Source: Escherichia coli | GTDB lineage: Bacteria > Pseudomonadota > Gammaproteobacteria > Enterobacterales > Enterobacteriaceae | Length of the DNA: 64,000 bases | Reading direction: 5' to 3' (one strand) | Assembly: GCF_044324785.1 (NCBI RefSeq) | Contig: NZ_CP172127.1 | Shown here: positions 8,024-55,245 of the stretch, piece after piece | How positions within the stretch are numbered: position 1 is the stretch's first letter | Layout: every line of letters begins with the position of its first letter | Notes under the pieces: model-generated | What the model was told of the DNA's origin: nothing | Seen by the model: only the letters and a program-made list of their open reading frames with translations | Database searches by the model: none | Position numbers and translations under genes: made by a program

Positions 8024-8111
8024 GGAAGTGTGGCCGAGCGGTTGAAGGCACCGGTCTTGAAAACCGGCGACCCGAAAGGGTTCCAGAGTTCGAATCTCTG
8101 CGCTTCCGCCA
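8024..8111 (+). tRNA. serT: tRNA-Ser (anticodon UGA)
   Basis: 88-nt GGAAGTGTGGCCGAGCGGTTGAAGGCACCGGTCTTGAAAACCGG...CGCTTCCGCCA; 7-bp acceptor stem, long variable arm, anticodon loop CTTGAAA, encoded CCA end. Confidence 0.93.
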
Positions 8112-32134: not shown

Positions 32135-33244
32135 GTGGCGACATTAACCCGGCTTTTTATTCATCCTGTTAAATCGATGCGCGGCATTGGTCTTACACAT
32201 GCTCTGGCAGATGTCAGTGGTCTGGCCTTCGATCGCATCTTTATGATCACGGAACCTGACGGTACGTTTATTACCGCTCGCCAGTTTCCCCAGATGGTAC
32301 GGTTTACTCCTTCACCTGTGCATGATGGCTTGCATCTCACCGCACCAGATGGCAGTAGCGCATATGTTCGTTTTGCTGATTTCGCCACACAAGACGCACC
32401 AACCGAAGTTTGGGGCACACATTTTACCGCGCGAATTGCGCCAGGCGCGATCAACAAATGGCTAAGTGGATTTTTCTCCCGCGAAGTGCAATTACGCTGG
32501 GTGGGGCCACAAATGACCCGGCGCGTGAAACGCCACAACACTGTACCTCTGTCATTTGCTGATGGCTATCCTTACCTTCTTGCTAACGAAGCCTCGTTAC
32601 GTGATCTCCAACAACGTTGTCCAGCCAGTGTAAAAATGGAGCAATTCCGCCCCAATCTGGTGGTTTCCGGCGCGTCCGCCTGGGAAGAAGATAGCTGGAA
32701 AGTGATTCGCATTGGTGATGTGGTATTTGATGTGGTTAAACCTTGTAGCCGCTGTATTTTCACCACCGTCAGCCCAGAAAAAGGGCAAAAACATCCGGCA
32801 GGCGAACCATTAAAAACATTGCAATCTTTCCGCACTGCCCAGGATAACGGCGATGTCGATTTTGGTCAGAATTTAATTGCCCGTAATAGCGGCGTAATTC
32901 GCGTTGGCGATGAGGTGGAAATTCTGGCAACGGCTCCGGCTAAAATTTACGGCGCAGCCGCCGCTGATGATACCGTCAACATCACGCAACAACCGGACGC
33001 AAATGTAGATATTGACTGGCAGGGACAGGCATTTCGTGGAAATAACCAGCAGGTGTTGCTGGAGCAATTAGAAAATCAGGGAATTCGTATCCCTTATTCT
33101 TGCCGCGCGGGCATTTGTGGAAGTTGCCGTGTTCAGCTTTTAGAAGGCGAAGTCACGCCGCTGAAAAAATCAGCAATGGGCGATGATGGCACCATTCTTT
33201 GCTGTAGCTGTGTACCGAAGACTGCGCTTAAGCTGACGCGTTAG
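32135..33244 (+). CDS. ycbX: MOSC-domain protein with C-terminal 2Fe-2S ferredoxin domain
   Basis: Track ORF 369 aa beginning at GTG 32135 ([19 protein letters not shown]...); GAGGA Shine-Dalgarno at 32122-32126; C-terminal [11 protein letters not shown] ferredoxin motif. Confidence 0.9.
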
Positions 33245-33783
33245 ACTGCCTGTTCGAGGCTGAAGCTGTCCGCATTAACCTGCGGTTTCAGCCTGTCGTT
33301 CATGATTTTAATGGCGTCGCCCAACTGCATCGTGCGACCCGCAATAACAACGCAGGGTTGGGCCAGCAGGCATAGTGCGGCATTTTCGCCAGATTCAATG
33401 ACCAGCAAATTGACCTGCTCGTGAGTATCGCTCAACCAAACGCAGGCCGCATCGCCCGGCATGGGCATCCACATTTCACCATGAGATACAAAATGCCAGC
33501 TTTTCGGCATTTGCGGTTTGAGATAACGAATTGCTACCAGTGCATTAAGCACCAGTTCGGCTTTTTGTTCTTTAGATAAATTAAAATCGCGGCATTTTTC
33601 TTCAAATGAGAAATAGAGCGCTGCATCATCAACACAAAAAACGGAGGGATTAAAGGCATCTGGTGTGAGCATTTTACGAGCAAAACGCGAGCGAAATAAC
33701 ATACCATTGGCTAAATCGAGCATCATTCGATCGTGCTCTTCATCATAATACCAGCGCCAGTTATCGTCAGGTTTAATTCGCAT
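33241..33783 (-). CDS. zapC: Cell-division protein ZapC
   Basis: Track ORF 180 aa [30 protein letters not shown]... Confidence 0.92.
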
Positions 33784-33956
33784 GCGGATTCTCCCACCTA
33801 AATCATTCTGCGCAACATTGTCCTTTGCCGCTTCGTTTATTGCCCTAAATAAGAAAAGACTAAAATGTATAAATAAGCAACAGGTAAGGAATATAAAACA
33901 ACCAGGGCTGGAAATAAAGCCCCGGTTGTCTCATAACGTTAAAAAGGAGAAATTAA

Positions 33957-34967
33957 TCAGATATTGCTAACGATTTCTTTAATCAAAGGCGGTCCTTTGA
34001 AAATAAATCCCGAATAAATTTGCACCAGCGTTGCACCCGCAGCAATCTTTTCACGCGCAGCGATAACCGAGTCAATGCCGCCAACACCGATGATCGGTAA
34101 GCGACCGTTTAATTCCTGTGACAAGCGGCGAATAATTTCTGTGCTTTTTAACTGAAGCGGACGACCACTTAAGCCACCGGTTTGATCACAATTTTTCATT
34201 CCCTGAACCAGAGAACGATCGAGCGTGGTATTGGTTGCAATAACGCCATCAATATTATGGCGAACTAAACTATCGGCAACCTGGATCAATTCTTCTTCAG
34301 AAAGATCCGGCGCGATCTTCACTGCGATCGGCACATATTTATGGTGCATCGCTTGCAAATCATTTTGCTTATTTTTAATCGCGGTTAAGAGATCATCCAG
34401 CGCTTCGCCATATTGCAGTGTGCGTAGTCCTGGGGTATTCGGCGATGAAATATTGATGGCGATATATCCCGCATAAGCATAGATTTTTTCCATACAAATC
34501 AGATAGTCATCTTTACCCTGCTCCACCGGCGTATCTTTATTTTTGCCGATGTTAATACCCAGGACGCCATCATAATGGGCTTTTTTTACGTTCTCTACGA
34601 GGTTATCAACGCCAAGATTATTAAAGCCCATACGGTTGATCAAACCTTCGGCATCTACCAGACGAAAGAGACGCGGCTTGTCATTACCTGGCTGTGGACG
34701 TGGCGTGACGGTACCGATCTCGATCGATCCAAATCCCATCGCGCCTAACGCGTCAATGCACTCCCCGTCTTTATCAAGACCGGCTGCCAGACCAAGCGGA
34801 TTTTTAAACGTCAGGCCCATGCAGTTAACAGGTTTCGCAGGCACTTTCTGCCGCACCAGTGCTTCAAACGGCGTTCCGGTAATGCGGCGTAATTGCTGAA
34901 AAGTAAACTCATGAGCGCGCTCTGGATCGAGCTGGAAAAGGGCTTTACGAACGAAGGGGTAGTACAT
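33957..34967 (-). CDS. pyrD: Dihydroorotate dehydrogenase (quinone)
   Basis: Track ORF 33957..34994 (TTG-extended) trimmed to ATG 34967 ([21 protein letters not shown]...), 336 aa. Confidence 0.95.
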
Positions 34968-35077
34968 GAACTCTCCTGGATTCCCGGTGTGCAAACCGGG
35001 GGCGTATTATGTGCGAGTTCGGACCAAAAGGGAATTGACCTGTGGCAAAAAAAGCGCAAACGTTTTCCGAACCTGTT

Positions 35078-35788
35078 TCAGAGCAGATTTTGCTCCTTCT
35101 TTGCACTCAACCCGCCGTAATCATTTATCGTCCGCCAGGAGACATGACACGGTGCTATTGCCTGACACCAGCTTGTCTGACGCTGGCTTTTAGGTGGCAC
35201 AACTCCCGCATTACTTAACGCTTTACCATTTACGCTCACCTGAATCAGGTTAATGTAGTAAGGCGTTGGGTTAGTGAGTTGTACACCCTGCGAATTCCGT
35301 GTCCAGCGTAATTGTTGATAAGCTTCCAGCGGGTCGCCCGGCAAACCTTCGGGTCGCCAGAACAGTTTAAATACCGAGCGCATCGCCACTTTTACGCTCT
35401 GATTTTCAACTTTGCCGGATGGTACGCTGGCAATGCTTAACTCAAATAGCGTTTCGCGATCCACAGGCAAAATGCCGCTTTCCGTTCTCAGCAAGCGCAA
35501 CGTGCCTGTAGTACCGGGCTTCAGGAGAACAAGTGGTGGAGCGACCAGTAGTGGTGCTGACCCTGTCGATGCTTCGCCCCCGGCCCAACGCGTTGGGCGA
35601 TTGATTTTACTGTTAATAAGCCAGGATTCCTGACTGGTATTAGTCAGTGAAATAGATATCGATTCTCTGTCTGCCGGGAAGATAAATCGCGTTCCGCCAA
35701 CCACCACTCCTGCCTGCAATTTCCCCGCCACCAGCAGCGATAAAACGGCAAAAATCGCGAGCGTCAATCTGTTCCACGTATTAGTCAT
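35078..35788 (-). CDS. ycbF: Periplasmic fimbrial chaperone (PapD-like), second chaperone of the elf cluster
   Basis: Track ORF 35078..35815 trimmed to ATG 35788 (MTNTWNRLTLAIFAVLSLLVAGKLQA...); chaperone-type fold signature ...VFKLFWRPEGL...; start set by N-terminus recall, moderate certainty. Confidence 0.8.
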   Translation of the reverse strand: MTNTWNRLTLAIFAVLSLLVAGKLQAGVVVGGTRFIFPADRESISISLTNTSQESWLINSKINRPTRWAGGEASTGSAPLLVAPPLVLLKPGTTGTLRLLRTESGILPVDRETLFELSIASVPSGKVENQSVKVAMRSVFKLFWRPEGLPGDPLEAYQQLRWTRNSQGVQLTNPTPYYINLIQVSVNGKALSNAGVVPPKSQRQTSWCQAIAPCHVSWRTINDYGGLSAKKEQNLL

Positions 35789-36296
35789 AATGAAGTACAA
35801 ATGTCGCGCTGGCATTCACTTTACCCGACTGCACATCGCTATTAACAGGTCGCAATTGCGCATAAAAAGTTAATGGCACCTTACCGCTATGTAGGCTGTA
35901 GTCTTTACTCGCCTGGTTAAGCGGAATCAATATTTTCGCATCATCCAGAATCGCAATTGCCAGCCCGCTGGCTGCATCCGTACCACTTTCAATGGACAGC
36001 ATTTCGCTCTGCACTCCGTCGGGGGCTCCTGAAAAGGTGACGTCAACCGTGCTGACATCTGTTCCGCAATCCTGCAAATTAATAATGAAAGATTTCTCCG
36101 GGCCAAAATTCCCATTAGAAAAACGTGTCAGCGAGACATCGCCTAACTGCACATTGATTTGCTTGCTATCCTGTGCCAGCACGCATGTATTACGGCGAAA
36201 CGATCCGCTAATGTTAACCGTGCCATCATGGGCAAATAGCTCACAGCTTCCCATTAATCCCAGTAAGCACAGCATCCAGATTATCCGTTTCAACAT
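35781..36296 (-). CDS. ycbV: Fimbrial-like subunit
   Basis: Track ORF 35781..36344 trimmed to ATG 36296 (MLKRIIWMLCLLGLMGSCELFA...), 171 aa; 8-nt overlap with ycbF start. Confidence 0.82.
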   Translation of the reverse strand: MLKRIIWMLCLLGLMGSCELFAHDGTVNISGSFRRNTCVLAQDSKQINVQLGDVSLTRFSNGNFGPEKSFIINLQDCGTDVSTVDVTFSGAPDGVQSEMLSIESGTDAASGLAIAILDDAKILIPLNQASKDYSLHSGKVPLTFYAQLRPVNSDVQSGKVNASATFVLHYD

Positions 36297-36303
36297 CACT
36301 CCT

Positions 36304-36846
36304 TCACTGGTAAACCAGATCAAAATAGAGAACCGCCGTCGCATTACCGCCCGTTGCGCCCGCCTTTGTGGACTTATAGCGGAGTTGATATTTGAGTGTG
36401 TTATCCCCCGCTTTTAAGGGCGTAAGAGGCTGGACCTGATTGAGCGGGATTTCTTGCTGACTTTGCGCATCAAGAATTTGCACGGCAATCCCCGTTGCCA
36501 TACCACCGCCTCCGCCTGTGTCAGTTAGTTTGAGCAGTGTCGGCACAAGGGTGTCAGCCTCACCGCTAAAAAGGACGTCCGCGCCAGTAATACCAGCGGC
36601 ACAACCGGTGATATCGATATTCAAATCAGCAGCAGTGCTTACGGTATTCGCGGCCTGAAAATCACTGATATTAAAATCACCAATATGAATATTTTGTAAT
36701 GCACTTTTGGTGGCGACATCACAGCCCTGATCGACCACATTCCCATAAATATGCATACTAACTTGTTCAGGCCCAGCCATCCCGACATGGATGTTAAGAT
36801 TGCTAAAGAACAAGATAACGCACTGAAATATCGTTTTTTTCTTCAT
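36304..36846 (-). CDS. ycbU: Fimbrial-like subunit
   Basis: Track ORF 180 aa MKKKTIFQCVILFFSNLNIHVGMA... with signal peptide and pilin-like C-terminus. Confidence 0.82.
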   Translation of the reverse strand: MKKKTIFQCVILFFSNLNIHVGMAGPEQVSMHIYGNVVDQGCDVATKSALQNIHIGDFNISDFQAANTVSTAADLNIDITGCAAGITGADVLFSGEADTLVPTLLKLTDTGGGGGMATGIAVQILDAQSQQEIPLNQVQPLTPLKAGDNTLKYQLRYKSTKAGATGGNATAVLYFDLVYQ

Positions 36847-36857
36847 ACGTTCACGCG

Positions 36858-40519
<3,662 letters not shown>

Positions 40520-40543
40520 CTCGCTCTCTTAACTGAAGACGGC

Positions 40544-41245
40544 TTACGATTTACAGTTGAGTTGCGGCGTTTCCGCCCCGTAGTCATTGATGGTTCGGTA
40601 CGTTACGCTACTGTTTTGAGCACCCTTTGGCAGAGGGAATTGGTATTTATCAAAGGGGGAAATCATTTGATTTTTAACTACTTTTCCACCTATTTTCAGG
40701 TCTGTCAGGGTAATGAAATAAGGTGTTGGGTTACTGACCGTAACCATGTCAGCTGACGAAGTGCAACGCAGTTTCGCCGGAGCCTCGGCTAAGGGATACG
40801 CTAAACCTTTTGGTCGCCAGAAAAGTTTGATGACGCTTTGTGTGGCAATCTTCAGGGTATTGCCTTCTTCCCGCTTCGTTGTTGAAGGGACTGCCCGTAC
40901 GCTGGTGAAGAAAAGAGTTTCTCTGTCTTTCGCCAACGGCGCACCAATATACATAATGCGTAACAGATTCTCGTTTGCCGGATTCAGCACAAATAGCGGT
41001 GGTGTAATAATAAAGTCCGCTGACTTTTTATTATCTGGGGTCATCACCCATGACTGAATAAGATAAGGAACATCCGGACTGGTGTTACGTACACCCAGTG
41101 AAATTTGCTCTTCACCTTCCGAATAAACAAGACGTGTTGCTGCAAGTCCGACCCCACCTTTACCTGCCGCCCATGTGAACGAACAGCTGAGTAATATTGC
41201 CGTTAAACTTACGGTCACAATTCCCTTTGTTATGCAAGTTTTCAT
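40544..41245 (-). CDS. elfD: Periplasmic fimbrial chaperone
   Basis: Track ORF 233 aa MKTCITKGIVTVSLTAILLSCSFTWA... with ...VIKLFWRPKGL... chaperone signature. Confidence 0.9.
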   Translation of the reverse strand: MKTCITKGIVTVSLTAILLSCSFTWAAGKGGVGLAATRLVYSEGEEQISLGVRNTSPDVPYLIQSWVMTPDNKKSADFIITPPLFVLNPANENLLRIMYIGAPLAKDRETLFFTSVRAVPSTTKREEGNTLKIATQSVIKLFWRPKGLAYPLAEAPAKLRCTSSADMVTVSNPTPYFITLTDLKIGGKVVKNQMISPFDKYQFPLPKGAQNSSVTYRTINDYGAETPQLNCKS

Positions 41246-41327
41246 AAATAGTCACTCTTAAAAAATATGGATATCCCCTCCAGAACACTGGAGGGGTACT
41301 AATTAATAAAACAATTAATGAGTTCTA

Positions 41328-41867
41328 TTAATAATAGTTAATATGGAAATTTGTTACCGCATTCACATTACCAGAAGTCGCTTTCCCCGTAGCGATATAA
41401 TCAACTTTAAAAGTCAACGTCTGATCTCCATCTTGCAACAAAATGTTCCCGGTTTCTGTGTCTGGCGTGATGGCCGTTGTACCATCATTCATATACATTT
41501 GCAGGGCCACGTTTGTAGCAGCATCAGATGAGGCCTGGTTAGCAAACGCTGTAATCTGAGTAGTATCCGCAGTGCCATTAAAGGTGAACGTTGCATTTTT
41601 TGTTACGGTAGTATCACAATCTTTTAATTCAATTGGCACATCAGTTTGCACGCCAGAAACCTGACCATTGGTTTGCAACTTCGTGGCACTAACATCTGGC
41701 AAAGTCACCACGGAATCTTTCGTCGCAGCGACCAGAGTACAAGCTGGAGCAATAACTTTACCATTAAATGTTACTGAGCCATCCGTGATAGCATTATCAT
41801 CAGCAGCCATAACGCTGGACGTTGCACATACCACAGTTATAAACGCCGTCAATACACTTTTTTTCAT
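41328..41867 (-). CDS. elfA: Major fimbrial subunit (E. coli laminin-binding fimbriae)
   Basis: Track ORF 41328..41876 trimmed to ATG 41867 (MKKSVLTAFITVVCATSSVMAADDNAITDGSVTFNGKV...), 179 aa. Confidence 0.88.
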   Translation of the reverse strand: MKKSVLTAFITVVCATSSVMAADDNAITDGSVTFNGKVIAPACTLVAATKDSVVTLPDVSATKLQTNGQVSGVQTDVPIELKDCDTTVTKNATFTFNGTADTTQITAFANQASSDAATNVALQMYMNDGTTAITPDTETGNILLQDGDQTLTFKVDYIATGKATSGNVNAVTNFHINYY

Positions 41868-42222
41868 CGTTATCATCCTGATCTCTTCGTAAATATGATA
41901 ATGCCTTTAAATGACATTAGACTTAATAATAACAATAATTGTCCGCCATTTAAATCAAGCATACTAAATCCAATAAGTGACAAATCTTTAATTTATAGAT
42001 TTCATGAATATTTAAATATTAACTGAACGAGTAATTCATTGATTCAACATCTAATGACTATCCAATAAATAAATATGCGTGATATATAAAGCCCTTTCTT
42101 TAGTTTATTTTCAGAAAAAGATACACAAAATTTATATTTGGCATTTTCTTGTCTCTCCGACAGACTGACCGAATTGTTATCAATGTTAACAAAACAAGAA
42201 CAATTGGTTATAAGGAGAGAGT
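41868..42222. promoter_or_regulatory. AT-rich divergent control region between elfA and ssuE
   Basis: 355 bp, visibly AT-rich with long A/T tracts (e.g. ATTTAAATATTAACTGAACGAGTAATTCATTGATTCAACATC); must hold the elf promoter (leftward) and the sulfur-starvation ssu promoter (rightward). Confidence 0.65.
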
Positions 42223-42798
42223 ATGCGTGTCATCACCCTGGCGGGTAGTCCTCGCTTTCCTTCTCGCTCCAGCTCCTTGCTGGAATATGCGCGGGAAAAA
42301 CTGAATGGCCTGGATGTAGAGGTTTATCACTGGAATCTGCAAAACTTCGCCCCGGAAGATCTACTTTATGCTCGTTTCGATAGTCCGGCACTCAAGACCT
42401 TCACCGAACAGCTGCAACAGGCTGATGGACTGATAGTCGCTACACCTGTGTATAAAGCCGCCTATTCCGGCGCGCTGAAAACCCTGCTCGACCTGCTGCC
42501 AGAGCGCGCTTTGCAAGGCAAAGTGGTGCTGCCGCTGGCGACAGGCGGCACGGTGGCTCATCTTTTGGCGGTCGATTATGCCCTTAAGCCAGTTTTAAGT
42601 GCGCTGAAAGCCCAGGAGATCCTGCACGGCGTGTTTGCCGATGACTCACAAGTAATTGATTACCACCACAAACCCCAGTTCACGCCAAATCTGCAAACCC
42701 GTCTTGATACCGCGCTGGAAACTTTCTGGCAGGCATTGCACCGTCGGGATGTTCAGGTTCCTGACCTTCTGTCTCTGCGAGGTAATGCCCATGCGTAA
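42223..42798 (+). CDS. ssuE: NADPH-dependent FMN reductase
   Basis: Track ORF 191 aa MRVITLAGSPRFPSRSSSLLEYAREKL... Confidence 0.93.
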   Translation: MRVITLAGSPRFPSRSSSLLEYAREKLNGLDVEVYHWNLQNFAPEDLLYARFDSPALKTFTEQLQQADGLIVATPVYKAAYSGALKTLLDLLPERALQGKVVLPLATGGTVAHLLAVDYALKPVLSALKAQEILHGVFADDSQVIDYHHKPQFTPNLQTRLDTALETFWQALHRRDVQVPDLLSLRGNAHA

Positions 42799-43750
42799 GA
42801 TCATTAAACTGGCGCTGGCGGGCTTACTTAGCGTCTCTACACTTGCTGTTGCCGCGGAGTCTTCGCCAGAGGCGTTACGGATTGGCTATCAGAAAAGCAA
42901 CATCAGTTCGGTGCTGGCGAAAAATTACCAAATGCTGGAAAAACGCTATCCGCAAACAAAAATCTTCTGGGTGGAGTTCCCGGCTGGCCCGCAGATGCTG
43001 GAGGCACTGAACGTCGGTAGTATCGATCTGGGTAGTACGGGAGATATTCCGCCAATCTTTGCTCAGGCCGCCGGGGCTGATTTGCTGTATGTGGGTGTCG
43101 AGCCACCGAAGCCAAAAGCCGAAGTGATTCTGGTGGCAGAAAATAGTCCGATCAAAACCGTAGCCGATCTTAAAGGTCACAAAGTTGCCTTTCAGAAAGG
43201 TTCCAGTTCACACAACCTTTTACTGCGTGCACTGCGTCAGGCCGGACTTAAGTTTACCGATATACAACCCACTTACCTGACACCCGCTGATGCCCGCGCC
43301 GCGTTCCAGCAAGGTAACGTTGACGCCTGGGCTATCTGGGATCCCTACTACTCCGCTGCATTATTACAGGGCGGCGTGCGGGTGCTGAAAGACGGCACCG
43401 ATCTCAATCAAACCGGATCGTTTTATCTGGCTGCCCGTCCGTATGCAGAAAAAAACGGCGCATTTATTCAGGGTGTACTGGCAACCTTTAGTGAGGCCGA
43501 TGCGTTAACCCGCAGCCAGCGCGAGCAAAGCATCGCCTTATTGGCAAAAACGATGGGCTTACCGGCCCCGGTGATTGCCTCGTATCTGGATCATCGCCCT
43601 CCCACCACCATCAAACCGGTTAACGCCGAAGTTGCCGCCTTACAGCAGCAAACGGCAGATCTGTTTTATGAAAACCGTCTGGTGCCGAAAAAAGTCGATA
43701 TTCGCCAGCGTATCTGGCAGCCCACTCAACTGGAAGGAAAACAATTATGA
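42791..43750 (+). CDS. ssuA: Aliphatic sulfonate ABC transporter periplasmic binding protein
   Basis: Track ORF 42656..43750 trimmed to ATG 42791 ([34 protein letters not shown]...), 319 aa; 8-nt overlap with ssuE. Confidence 0.92.
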
Positions 43751-44892
43751 GTCTGAATATGTTCTGGTTTTTACCGACCCATGGTGACGGGCATTATCTG
43801 GGAACGGAAGAAGGTTCACGCCCGGTTGATCACGGTTATCTGCAACAAATTGCGCAAGCGGCGGATCGTCTGGGCTATACCGGTGTGCTAATCCCAACGG
43901 GGCGATCGTGTGAAGATGCGTGGTTGGTGGCGGCGTCGATGATCCCGGTGACGCAGCGGCTGAAGTTTCTTGTCGCCCTGCGCCCCAGCGTAACCTCACC
44001 TACCGTTGCCGCCCGCCAGGCCGCCACGCTTGACCGTCTCTCTAATGGACGTGCGTTGTTTAACCTGGTCACAGGCAGCGATCCACAAGAACTGGCAGGC
44101 GACGGCGTGTTCCTTGATCATAGCGAGCGCTACGAAGCCTCGGCGGAATTTACCCAGGTCTGGCGGCGTTTATTGCTGGGCGAAACCGTCGATTTCAACG
44201 GTAAACATATTCATGTGCGGGGAGCCAAACTGCTCTTCCCGCCGATTCAACAGCCGTATCCTCCGCTTTACTTTGGCGGATCGTCAGACGTCGCCCAGGA
44301 GCTGGCGGCAGAACAAGTTGATCTCTACCTCACCTGGGGCGAACCGCCAGAACTGGTTAAAGAGAAAATCAAACAAGTGCGGGCGAAAGCTGCCGCGCAT
44401 GGACGCAAAATTCGTTTCGGTATTCGTCTGCATGTGATTGTTCGTGAAACCAACGACGAAGCGTGGCAGGCCGCCGAGCGGTTAATCTCGCATCTTGATG
44501 ATGAAACTATCGCCAAAGCACAGGCCGCATTCGCCCGGACGGATTCCGTAGGACAACAGCGGATGGCGGCGCTCCATAACGGCAAGCGCGACAATCTGGA
44601 GATCAGCCCCAATTTATGGGCGGGCGTTGGCTTAGTGCGCGGCGGTGCCGGGACGGCGCTAGTGGGCGATGGTCCGACGGTCGCCGCGCGGATCAACGAA
44701 TACGCTGCACTTGGCATCGACAGTTTTGTGCTTTCGGGCTACCCGCATCTGGAAGAAGCGTATCGGGTTGGCGAATTGCTGTTCCCGCATCTGGATGTCG
44801 CCATCCCGGAAATTCCCCAGCCGCAGCCGCTGAATCTGCAAGGCGAAGCGGTGGCAAATGATTTTATCCCCCGTAAAGTCGCGCAAAGCTAA
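43747..44892 (+). CDS. ssuD: FMNH2-dependent alkanesulfonate monooxygenase
   Basis: Track ORF 381 aa [44 protein letters not shown]... Confidence 0.94.
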
Positions 44893-55216: not shown

Positions 55217-55245
55217 AAGCCCGCTTGAAAAGCGGGCTTTTTTAT
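55217..55245 (+). terminator. Intrinsic terminator after aspC
   Basis: AAGCCCGCTT-GAAA-AGCGGGCTT hairpin followed by TTTTTAT; sits 7 bp from the ycbL stop on the other strand. Confidence 0.85.

Follow-up and report, generated by a model that had tools for sequence, protein, structure and literature searches.

Does a fimbrial locus that decays in some lineages of Escherichia coli remain capable of building a fiber where all of its reading frames are open, and what is the place in it of a second chaperone? The locus in question lies in a stretch of 64,000 nucleotides (nt) of E. coli DNA (contig NZ_CP172127.1 of assembly GCF_044324785.1; hereafter the window). An earlier note, made from the sequence of the window, had described an intact chaperone-usher cluster of seven genes at positions 35078–41867, and had taken its second chaperone and additional pilin-like genes as signs of a composite fiber or of alternative tip subunits. 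We are confident that the cluster is the E. coli elfADCG-ycbUVF operon (Ycb/ELF, for E. coli laminin-binding fimbriae) in intact form, a classical gamma-1 chaperone-usher system; the assignment of Ycb/ELF fimbriae to the gamma-1 class, a clade of the usher phylogeny of Nuccio and Baumler, comes from published work (PMC7098969). The operon is already known and described, and an intact copy at this position is an ordinary finding.

The Window Carries an Intact Ycb/ELF Operon

In the list of open reading frames (ORFs) for positions 33000–44000, seven consecutive, co-directional genes on the minus strand (elfA, elfD, elfC, elfG, ycbU, ycbV, and ycbF) are open at 35078–41867, and this span is bounded exactly by the ycbF stop codon and the elfA start codon. 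Re-translation confirmed that all seven genes are full length and co-directional, as the earlier note had it; the note omitted that they lie on the minus strand. The intergenic gaps are 82 nt (elfA-elfD), 24 nt (elfD-elfC), 11 nt (elfG-ycbU), and 7 nt (ycbU-ycbV), and the two overlaps that had been noted, 10 nt between elfC and elfG and 8 nt between ycbV and ycbF, are both correct, the latter when the K-12 start of ycbF is used.

We compared the genes one by one with the corresponding region of K-12 MG1655. Each has the length of its K-12 ortholog (b0938–b0944) and the same start and stop codons, the seven proteins show 94.5%–99.4% amino acid identity to those of K-12, and we found no internal stop codons and no insertions or deletions (indels) relative to K-12 MG1655 across the 6.8 kb of the seven genes. 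With no frameshift or premature stop, every frame is indeed open, including that of the usher of 866 amino acids (aa). The operon occupies its K-12 site between ssuE and pyrD, and its gene order is likewise that of K-12. The operons of K-12 and O157:H7 have the same genes, order, lengths, and site, and the copy in the window differs from them at the allele level only.

Gene names and roles agree across Pfam, NCBIfam, the RefSeq annotation of matching genomes, and synteny with K-12, which supports the chaperone, usher, and pilin assignments made in the earlier note. Pfam scores for the domains of all seven proteins are far above the gathering thresholds, and the domain content is that of four pilins, two PapD-like chaperones, and one full usher. 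We found no evidence that contradicts the identification of the cluster as Ycb/ELF.

The ratio of nonsynonymous to synonymous substitutions per site (dN/dS), estimated against K-12 by the Nei-Gojobori method, is 0.08 for elfA, 0.10 for elfD, 0.05 for elfC, 0.06 for elfG, 0.17 for ycbU, 0.33 for ycbV, and 0.27 for ycbF, and the flanking housekeeping genes have dN/dS values comparable to those of the fimbrial genes. All seven genes are under purifying selection. The genes have had plenty of time to decay since they diverged (dS peaks at 0.26, in elfC), and they did not. The description of the cluster as potentially functional is thus borne out by dN/dS values well below 1 in all seven genes, and by the fact that the operons of K-12 and O157 make fimbriae (PMC7098969, PMC5797941). 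When expression of these operons was made constitutive or inducible, fimbriae were seen by electron microscopy, and early biofilm formation and adhesion to polarized epithelium were observed (PMC7098969, PMC4914927). Binding of laminin and heparin has also been reported for Ycb/ELF (PMC7098969, PMC4914927), the laminin result being cited here second-hand through PMC7098969.

The Locus Is Absent or Damaged in Some Lineages

We surveyed 5,426 complete E. coli genomes. By megablast, the locus was matched in 4,072 of them, and 3,997 (~74%) cover at least 80% of it. A query in which pyrD and ssuE are joined directly was covered in one place in 1,353 genomes; therefore, ~25% have an empty site, a fraction that fits the published phylogroup distribution of Ycb, which is found in phylogroups A, B1, D, and E, with the related Auf cluster elsewhere in B2 (PMC3559732). 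We aligned one empty site (L012) with the window. The alignment ends at 35067 and resumes at 42155, and ~69 bp of unrelated sequence stands in place of the locus. The unit of presence and absence is accordingly the operon together with 287 bp upstream of it (Table 1), and it has a G+C content of 46.7%, compared with 51.3% for the window.

Damaged copies also occur, and we report them as individual examples. In strain SC418, which has the closest elfC (99.0%), elfA is split by the IS110-family element IS621 (L005 3375–5192), and in strain HZ13 the usher is annotated in two pieces. In Shigella flexneri 2457T, ycbQ (elfA) is listed as a pseudogene and the entry for the ycbR (elfD) chaperone is absent (PMC6854044). 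Together with the empty sites, these cases agree with the earlier statement that the locus decays in some lineages.

Could the copy in the window then be a decaying relic, silent and unselected, whose frames are open by chance and which makes no fiber? In its favor, laboratory K-12 is described as carrying the operon in cryptic form (PMC5797941), one complete E. coli genome in four is without it, and close relatives carry disrupted copies. This explanation is already disfavored by the selection data, however, with dN/dS between 0.05 and 0.33 in all seven genes, dS of up to 0.26, and not one indel relative to K-12. In addition, the seven genes of Pseudocitrobacter, which also occupy the ssuE/pyrD site and are ordered alike, are all intact, with 56%–74% amino acid identity per gene, and the K-12 and O157 operons assemble fimbriae once they are transcribed (PMC7098969). 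We consider it very improbable that the locus is a relic.

Usher, Primary Chaperone, and Subunits

The features of the locus are collected in Table 1. Pfam resolves ElfC into an N-terminal domain, a barrel, and a C-terminal domain. The best NCBIfam model for ElfC is PRK15193 (1743 bits, which passes the cut-off of 995), which we take to be BcfC from the accession numbering only; FimD (954) and LpfC (858) follow. The best models for ElfD are BcfB and FimC. ElfD and YcbF are both chaperones of the FGS type (short F1-G1 loop): their alignments to FimC show no insertion in the region of the G1 strand. The cleft arginine and lysine (equivalent to FimC Arg8 and Lys112) are invariant in an alignment of chaperones that includes both proteins.

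ElfA is 99.4% identical to K-12 ElfA and has a signal peptide, the N-terminal donor-strand segment GSVTFNGKVI, a Cys43/Cys84 pair, and the C terminus ...NFHINYY. The corresponding features are a Cys42/Cys82 pair and the end ...YFDLVYQ in YcbU, and a Cys38/Cys77 pair and the end ...TFVLHYD in YcbV. A check of these three pilins for donor-strand motifs, as the earlier note had suggested, was thus positive: the Cys pair and a C-terminal ...F/V-x-I/L-x-Y-x motif with a penultimate aromatic residue can be read in each of them, and each has an N-terminal (donor-strand) segment before its first Cys, which ElfG lacks. With BcfF and FimF models scoring about equally for YcbV (116 and 115 bits), and the BcfE and FimF models listed in Table 1 for YcbU, both proteins are probably adaptor subunits. 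The N-terminal half of ElfG is the receptor-binding one, and a pilin domain makes up its C-terminal part (residues 211–356, 146 residues; Pfam Fimbrial). The best NCBIfam models for ElfG are BcfD and LpfD, with about equal scores, and residues 33–356 align to 5AFO (E = 3e-26), the solved structure of LpfD, the two-domain adhesin of long polar fimbriae.

Table 1. Features of the Ycb/ELF Locus in the Window
Feature	Position	Strand	Evidence or remarks
ycbF, second periplasmic chaperone, 236 aa	35078–35788	minus	Pfam PapD_N 3.4e-28, PapD_C 1.1e-14
ycbV, minor pilin, 171 aa	35781–36296	minus	Pfam Fimbrial 7.6e-20
ycbU, minor pilin, 180 aa	36304–36846	minus	Pfam Fimbrial 1.4e-14; best NCBIfam BcfE, then FimF
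elfG (ycbT), two-domain tip adhesin, 356 aa	36858–37928	minus	Pfam Fimbrial on C-terminal half only
elfC (ycbS), outer-membrane usher, 866 aa	37919–40519	minus	Pfam PapC_N 1.5e-49, Usher 2.7e-222, PapC_C 1.4e-18
elfD (ycbR), primary periplasmic chaperone, 233 aa	40544–41245	minus	Pfam PapD_N 4.7e-36, PapD_C 2.9e-15
9-bp G+C-rich hairpin CCCCTCCAG-TGTT-CTGGAGGGG	41275–41296	minus	Inside the 82-nt elfA-elfD gap
elfA (ycbQ), major pilin, 179 aa	41328–41867	minus	Pfam Fimbrial E = 5e-17; best NCBIfam BcfA
Divergent ssuE-elfA control region, 355 bp, 27.6% G+C	41868–42222		Composition
Published possible SlyA site TCAGGATGATAA	41870–41881	minus	Verbatim match to PMC5797941; center 8 bp upstream of elfA ATG
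Promoter-like site TTTAAA, 17 nt, TG-TATTAT	41926–41954	minus	Consensus match only; ~59 nt upstream of elfA; weak
Presence/absence unit, 7,087 bp: operon + 287 bp upstream	35068–42154		Alignment with empty site (L012)

The Second Chaperone Is a Conserved Part of the Operon Type

YcbF scores above the cut-off of NCBIfam PRK11385 (525 bits; cut-off 357); outside its own family, the top model is PRK15192, which we equate with BcfG solely because of how the accessions are numbered. The alignment of YcbF to FimC has E = 3e-34, and the equivalents of Arg8 and Lys112 are conserved. The 8-nt overlap arises because the ATG of ycbF falls within the final codons of ycbV (TTATGACTAA). An alternative upstream ATG at 35815, which opens the longest ORF and is the PGAP start in some genomes, gives a protein of 245 aa and an overlap of 35 nt; the signal peptide is better from the K-12 start (MTNTWNRLTLAIFAVLSLLVAGKLQA/GVVVGG).

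YcbF and ElfD are 36% identical. A protein search with YcbF, combined with inspection of gene neighborhoods, led to the clusters of Pseudocitrobacter and Enterobacter that have the gene order of elf. We aligned YcbF with chaperones of its type from Citrobacter, Pseudocitrobacter, Enterobacter, Buttiauxella, and the E. coli Auf cluster. A Cys208/Cys214 pair in domain 2 is nearly invariant among these homologs and a loop insert in domain 1 is conserved, and ElfD has neither. In PapD, a disulfide is found at the place equivalent to Cys208/Cys214. In every cluster, the ATG of the chaperone gene falls within the final codons of the pilin gene before it (TTATGACTAA, TTATGACTAG, TTATGCCTGA, or CTATGATTAA). 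The 8-nt overlap of the last pilin gene with the second chaperone gene is kept in the elf, Pseudocitrobacter, Enterobacter, and Auf clusters, and both it and the position of the second chaperone persist even at ~40% identity. The second chaperone is ancient and conserved in operons of this type, and not a local addition.

Related systems place the elf operon among its relatives. Type 1 (Fim) and Lpf fimbriae belong to the gamma-1 class, to which Elf is assigned in the literature, and the presumed assembly mechanism is common to all three; FimD and LpfC are the next-best usher models, and FimC and LpfD are, respectively, the chaperone and the adhesin of solved structure that come closest. Fim and Lpf have one chaperone each, whereas Elf has a second; Fim ends with its adhesin gene and has, behind the gene for the major pilin, a gene of the FimI type, for which Elf has no counterpart at that position. 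The bcfABCDEFG(H) cluster (bovine colonization factor) of Salmonella enterica lies at a different chromosomal site from elf and corresponds to it gene for gene, including the two chaperones: the best NCBIfam models for ElfA, ElfD, ElfG, YcbU, and YcbV are BcfA, BcfB, BcfD, BcfE, and BcfF, and the parallel for the usher and YcbF is drawn from PRK15193 and PRK15192. Only the usher exceeds the cut-off of such a model (PRK15193); ElfA, ElfD, ElfG, YcbU, and YcbV all score below the Bcf equivalog cut-offs (BcfA, 118 against 247; BcfD, 124 against 517), and therefore elf and bcf are homologous and positionally equivalent without belonging to the same equivalog families. The bcf cluster has been described as orthologous, with BcfD as the adhesin, whose alleles tune binding to host cells (PMC5343171).

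The E. coli elf locus has no thiol-disulfide gene like bcfH of the Salmonella cluster, although the YcbF-type chaperones keep their Cys pair. Enterobacter roggenkampii has the same gene order at another site, plus an extra pilin gene and a ScsC_N-like gene; the latter, a gene of 95 aa with a faint ScsC_N match (L008 9730–10017), lies directly after the YcbF-like chaperone gene and resembles bcfH.

The Auf cluster, which lies beside glgP in E. coli of phylogroup B2, resembles elf in having two chaperones, a pilin-pilin-chaperone module, the 8-nt overlap, and the Cys pair of the YcbF type, but it occupies a different locus and its proteins are only 23%–47% identical to those of elf. Its gene order is major pilin, chaperone, usher, pilin, pilin, chaperone, and an adhesin-sized gene last, whereas the elf adhesin gene directly follows the usher gene. 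Because the adhesin gene precedes the pilin-pilin-chaperone block in elf and follows it in Auf, we conclude that the block is a conserved module. Published work describes Auf as a close relative of Ycb and reports that the two are mutually exclusive (PMC3559732). In the B2 bloodstream isolate MS20653 (L004 8592–9106), the second minor pilin gene of Auf is annotated as frameshifted.

Our best guess is that YcbF is a conserved, specialized accessory chaperone, probably for YcbU and YcbV; these clients are proposed because ycbF is translationally coupled to ycbV. A broader version of this idea, which we put forward tentatively and judge less likely than not, is that the YcbF-type chaperones (YcbF, the AufF-like proteins, and probably BcfG) may form an old, distinct subfamily dedicated to the adaptor subunits YcbU and YcbV, marked by the Cys pair in domain 2, the loop insert in domain 1, and an 8-nt ATGNNTRA coupling overlap. 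The papers that we consulted contain no experiments on a dedicated adaptor-chaperone role of YcbF-type proteins.

Several observations weigh against this picture of a potentially functional operon with a specialized second chaperone. Published reports conflict on whether the fiber is rigid or flexible (PMC7098969). A consensus scan of positions 34900–42300 gave 8 promoter-like sites, compared with 11.4 expected in shuffled sequence, and as the promoter matches do not exceed those in shuffled sequence, the single promoter-like site upstream of elfA counts as weak evidence; terminator-like sites numbered 12, compared with 8.2 in shuffled sequence, which we did not count as an excess. Lastly, the ycbF deletion was the only ycb mutant of K-12 with normal invasion (PMC4914927), a phenotype that redundancy with ElfD explains no less well than a dedicated role does.

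The invasion phenotype raises the alternative that YcbF is a redundant back-up, a duplicate of ElfD that serves the same clients and has no distinct part in assembly, and the cleft residues and short-loop architecture that the two chaperones both retain are in keeping with it. On the other hand, the two proteins are only 36% identical, the Cys pair and loop insert are common to the YcbF-type chaperones that we aligned and missing in ElfD, and the position and 8-nt overlap with the last minor pilin gene have been retained at ~40% identity. Nor would a redundant copy be expected to persist so long under purifying selection (dN/dS 0.27). Simple redundancy therefore strikes us as conceivable but doubtful.

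The Seven Genes as One Operon, and a Model for Assembly

The additional pilin genes and the second chaperone gene could also be read as a separate transcription unit, ycbU-ycbV-ycbF, that provides an alternative tip or a second fiber through the same usher. The pilin-pilin-chaperone block does behave as a movable module, placed before the adhesin gene in Auf and after it in Elf, and it has its own chaperone. However, the gap between elfG and ycbU is only 11 nt, and the scan gave no promoter-like or terminator-like site there; a second usher and a second adhesin-sized gene are absent; and in K-12 the entire elfADCG-ycbUVF unit, all seven genes together, rises 2.7-fold on overproduction of SlyA (PMC5797941). 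We regard a separate unit as improbable. The composite fiber proposed in the earlier note is reasonable, in that a rod, adaptors, and a tip adhesin are the normal design of this class, and the second chaperone is a conserved member of the operon type, not an extra. The observation and the interpretation of the earlier note both hold.

On the pattern of the established Fim and Pap chaperone-usher systems, the fiber would be assembled as follows. Subunits would cross the inner membrane by the Sec pathway, after which the G1 strand of a PapD-like chaperone (ElfD or YcbF) would complete the incomplete immunoglobulin (Ig) fold of each subunit, with the C terminus of the subunit anchored on the conserved Arg/Lys pair of the chaperone. 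Chaperone-subunit complexes would then dock on the usher ElfC, where the N-terminal extension of each incoming subunit would replace the chaperone strand by donor-strand exchange. ElfG, having no N-terminal extension, would enter first and so form the tip; YcbU and YcbV, which are FimF-like and BcfE/F-like, would likely be the adaptor subunits; and ElfA would polymerize into the rod. With the hairpin behind elfA, the major pilin is probably made in larger amounts than the assembly proteins.

Control Region and Expression

The published evidence on regulation comes from K-12, in which SlyA binds the 355-bp ssuE-elfA region and the operon is reported to be H-NS repressed and cryptic (PMC5797941). 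Positions 41801–42100 of the window are 100% identical to K-12, and the 355-bp region is likely a target of H-NS silencing here as well. Expression of the operon is probably silent in the laboratory, because the A+T-rich control region is shared with K-12, where H-NS reportedly represses the operon and SlyA activates it.

The elfA-elfD gap folds with -27.2 kcal/mol (z = -4.6), and none of 200 shuffled sequences folded as well. The stem of the hairpin at 41275–41296 is identical in K-12, and the Pseudocitrobacter, Enterobacter, and Auf clusters each have a G+C-rich or long hairpin of another sequence behind the gene for the major pilin. The hairpin in the window may be a partial terminator or attenuator, or an mRNA stabilizer, through which the major pilin would be made in greater proportion to the assembly proteins.

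An Rfam search of the whole window at the gathering thresholds gave only the PyrD leader and tRNA-Ser, and thus no RNA family inside the operon. The PyrD leader (34962–35035, minus strand, 97.9 bits) begins 43 nt downstream of the ycbF stop codon. We found no convincing intrinsic terminator between ycbF and this leader, so that read-through from the fimbrial operon into pyrD is conceivable.

Allelic Make-Up of the Operon and the Wider Window

The window is collinear with positions 975,549–1,039,735 of K-12 (mukB to appC), with 97.4% identity and no insertions. Among the 5,426 complete genomes, the best identity is at most 98.2% over the locus and at most 98.1% over either 7-kb flank; as no genome is more than ~98% identical, the lineage of this strain is without a close representative in that set. 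The best partial matches are environmental and phylogroup-D-like strains.

We compared the locus with three references, K-12, SC418, and E300010, in sliding segments of 300 bp. The control region and elfA are 99%–100% K-12-like. By contrast with these figures, elfC is 90%–97% identical to K-12 (~94% overall) and 99%–100% identical to SC418 and E300010, and no one of the three references matches elfG throughout. The elfC allele group of the window (at least 95% identity) comprises 300 of 4,002 carriers, and the K-12-type group (90%–95% identical to the window) comprises 3,735 genomes. The operon is a recombination mosaic, of the kind that ordinary E. coli recombination produces.

Two pockets of divergence outside the operon look like recombination patches. 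Positions 33701–34000, between zapC and pyrD, are 80% identical to K-12 and E300010 and 99% identical to SC418, and positions 42700–43300, covering the 3' end of ssuE and the 5' part of ssuA, are merely 87%–95% identical to K-12, SC418, and E300010. Further away, ~155 bp of K-12 (984,329–984,483, between gloC and aspC) is missing from the window at ~55219–55238; the missing segment is possibly a repeat element of the REP/BIME type. A tRNA gene at 8024–8108 (plus strand) corresponds in position to K-12 serT (tRNA-Ser UGA).

Implications

The strain retains the Ycb/ELF adhesin operon in full, and published work ties this operon to binding of laminin and heparin, epithelial adherence, and early biofilm formation. 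The result can be used in genome annotation and adhesin typing, and it supplies clean coordinates for a presence/absence unit of 7.09 kb, although its practical value is small. It also touches on a wider question: why have the Elf, Bcf, and Auf clusters retained a second, distinct chaperone? If YcbF-type chaperones are indeed dedicated to the adaptor subunits, they would let the stoichiometry of the tip fibrillum be set independently of that of the rod.

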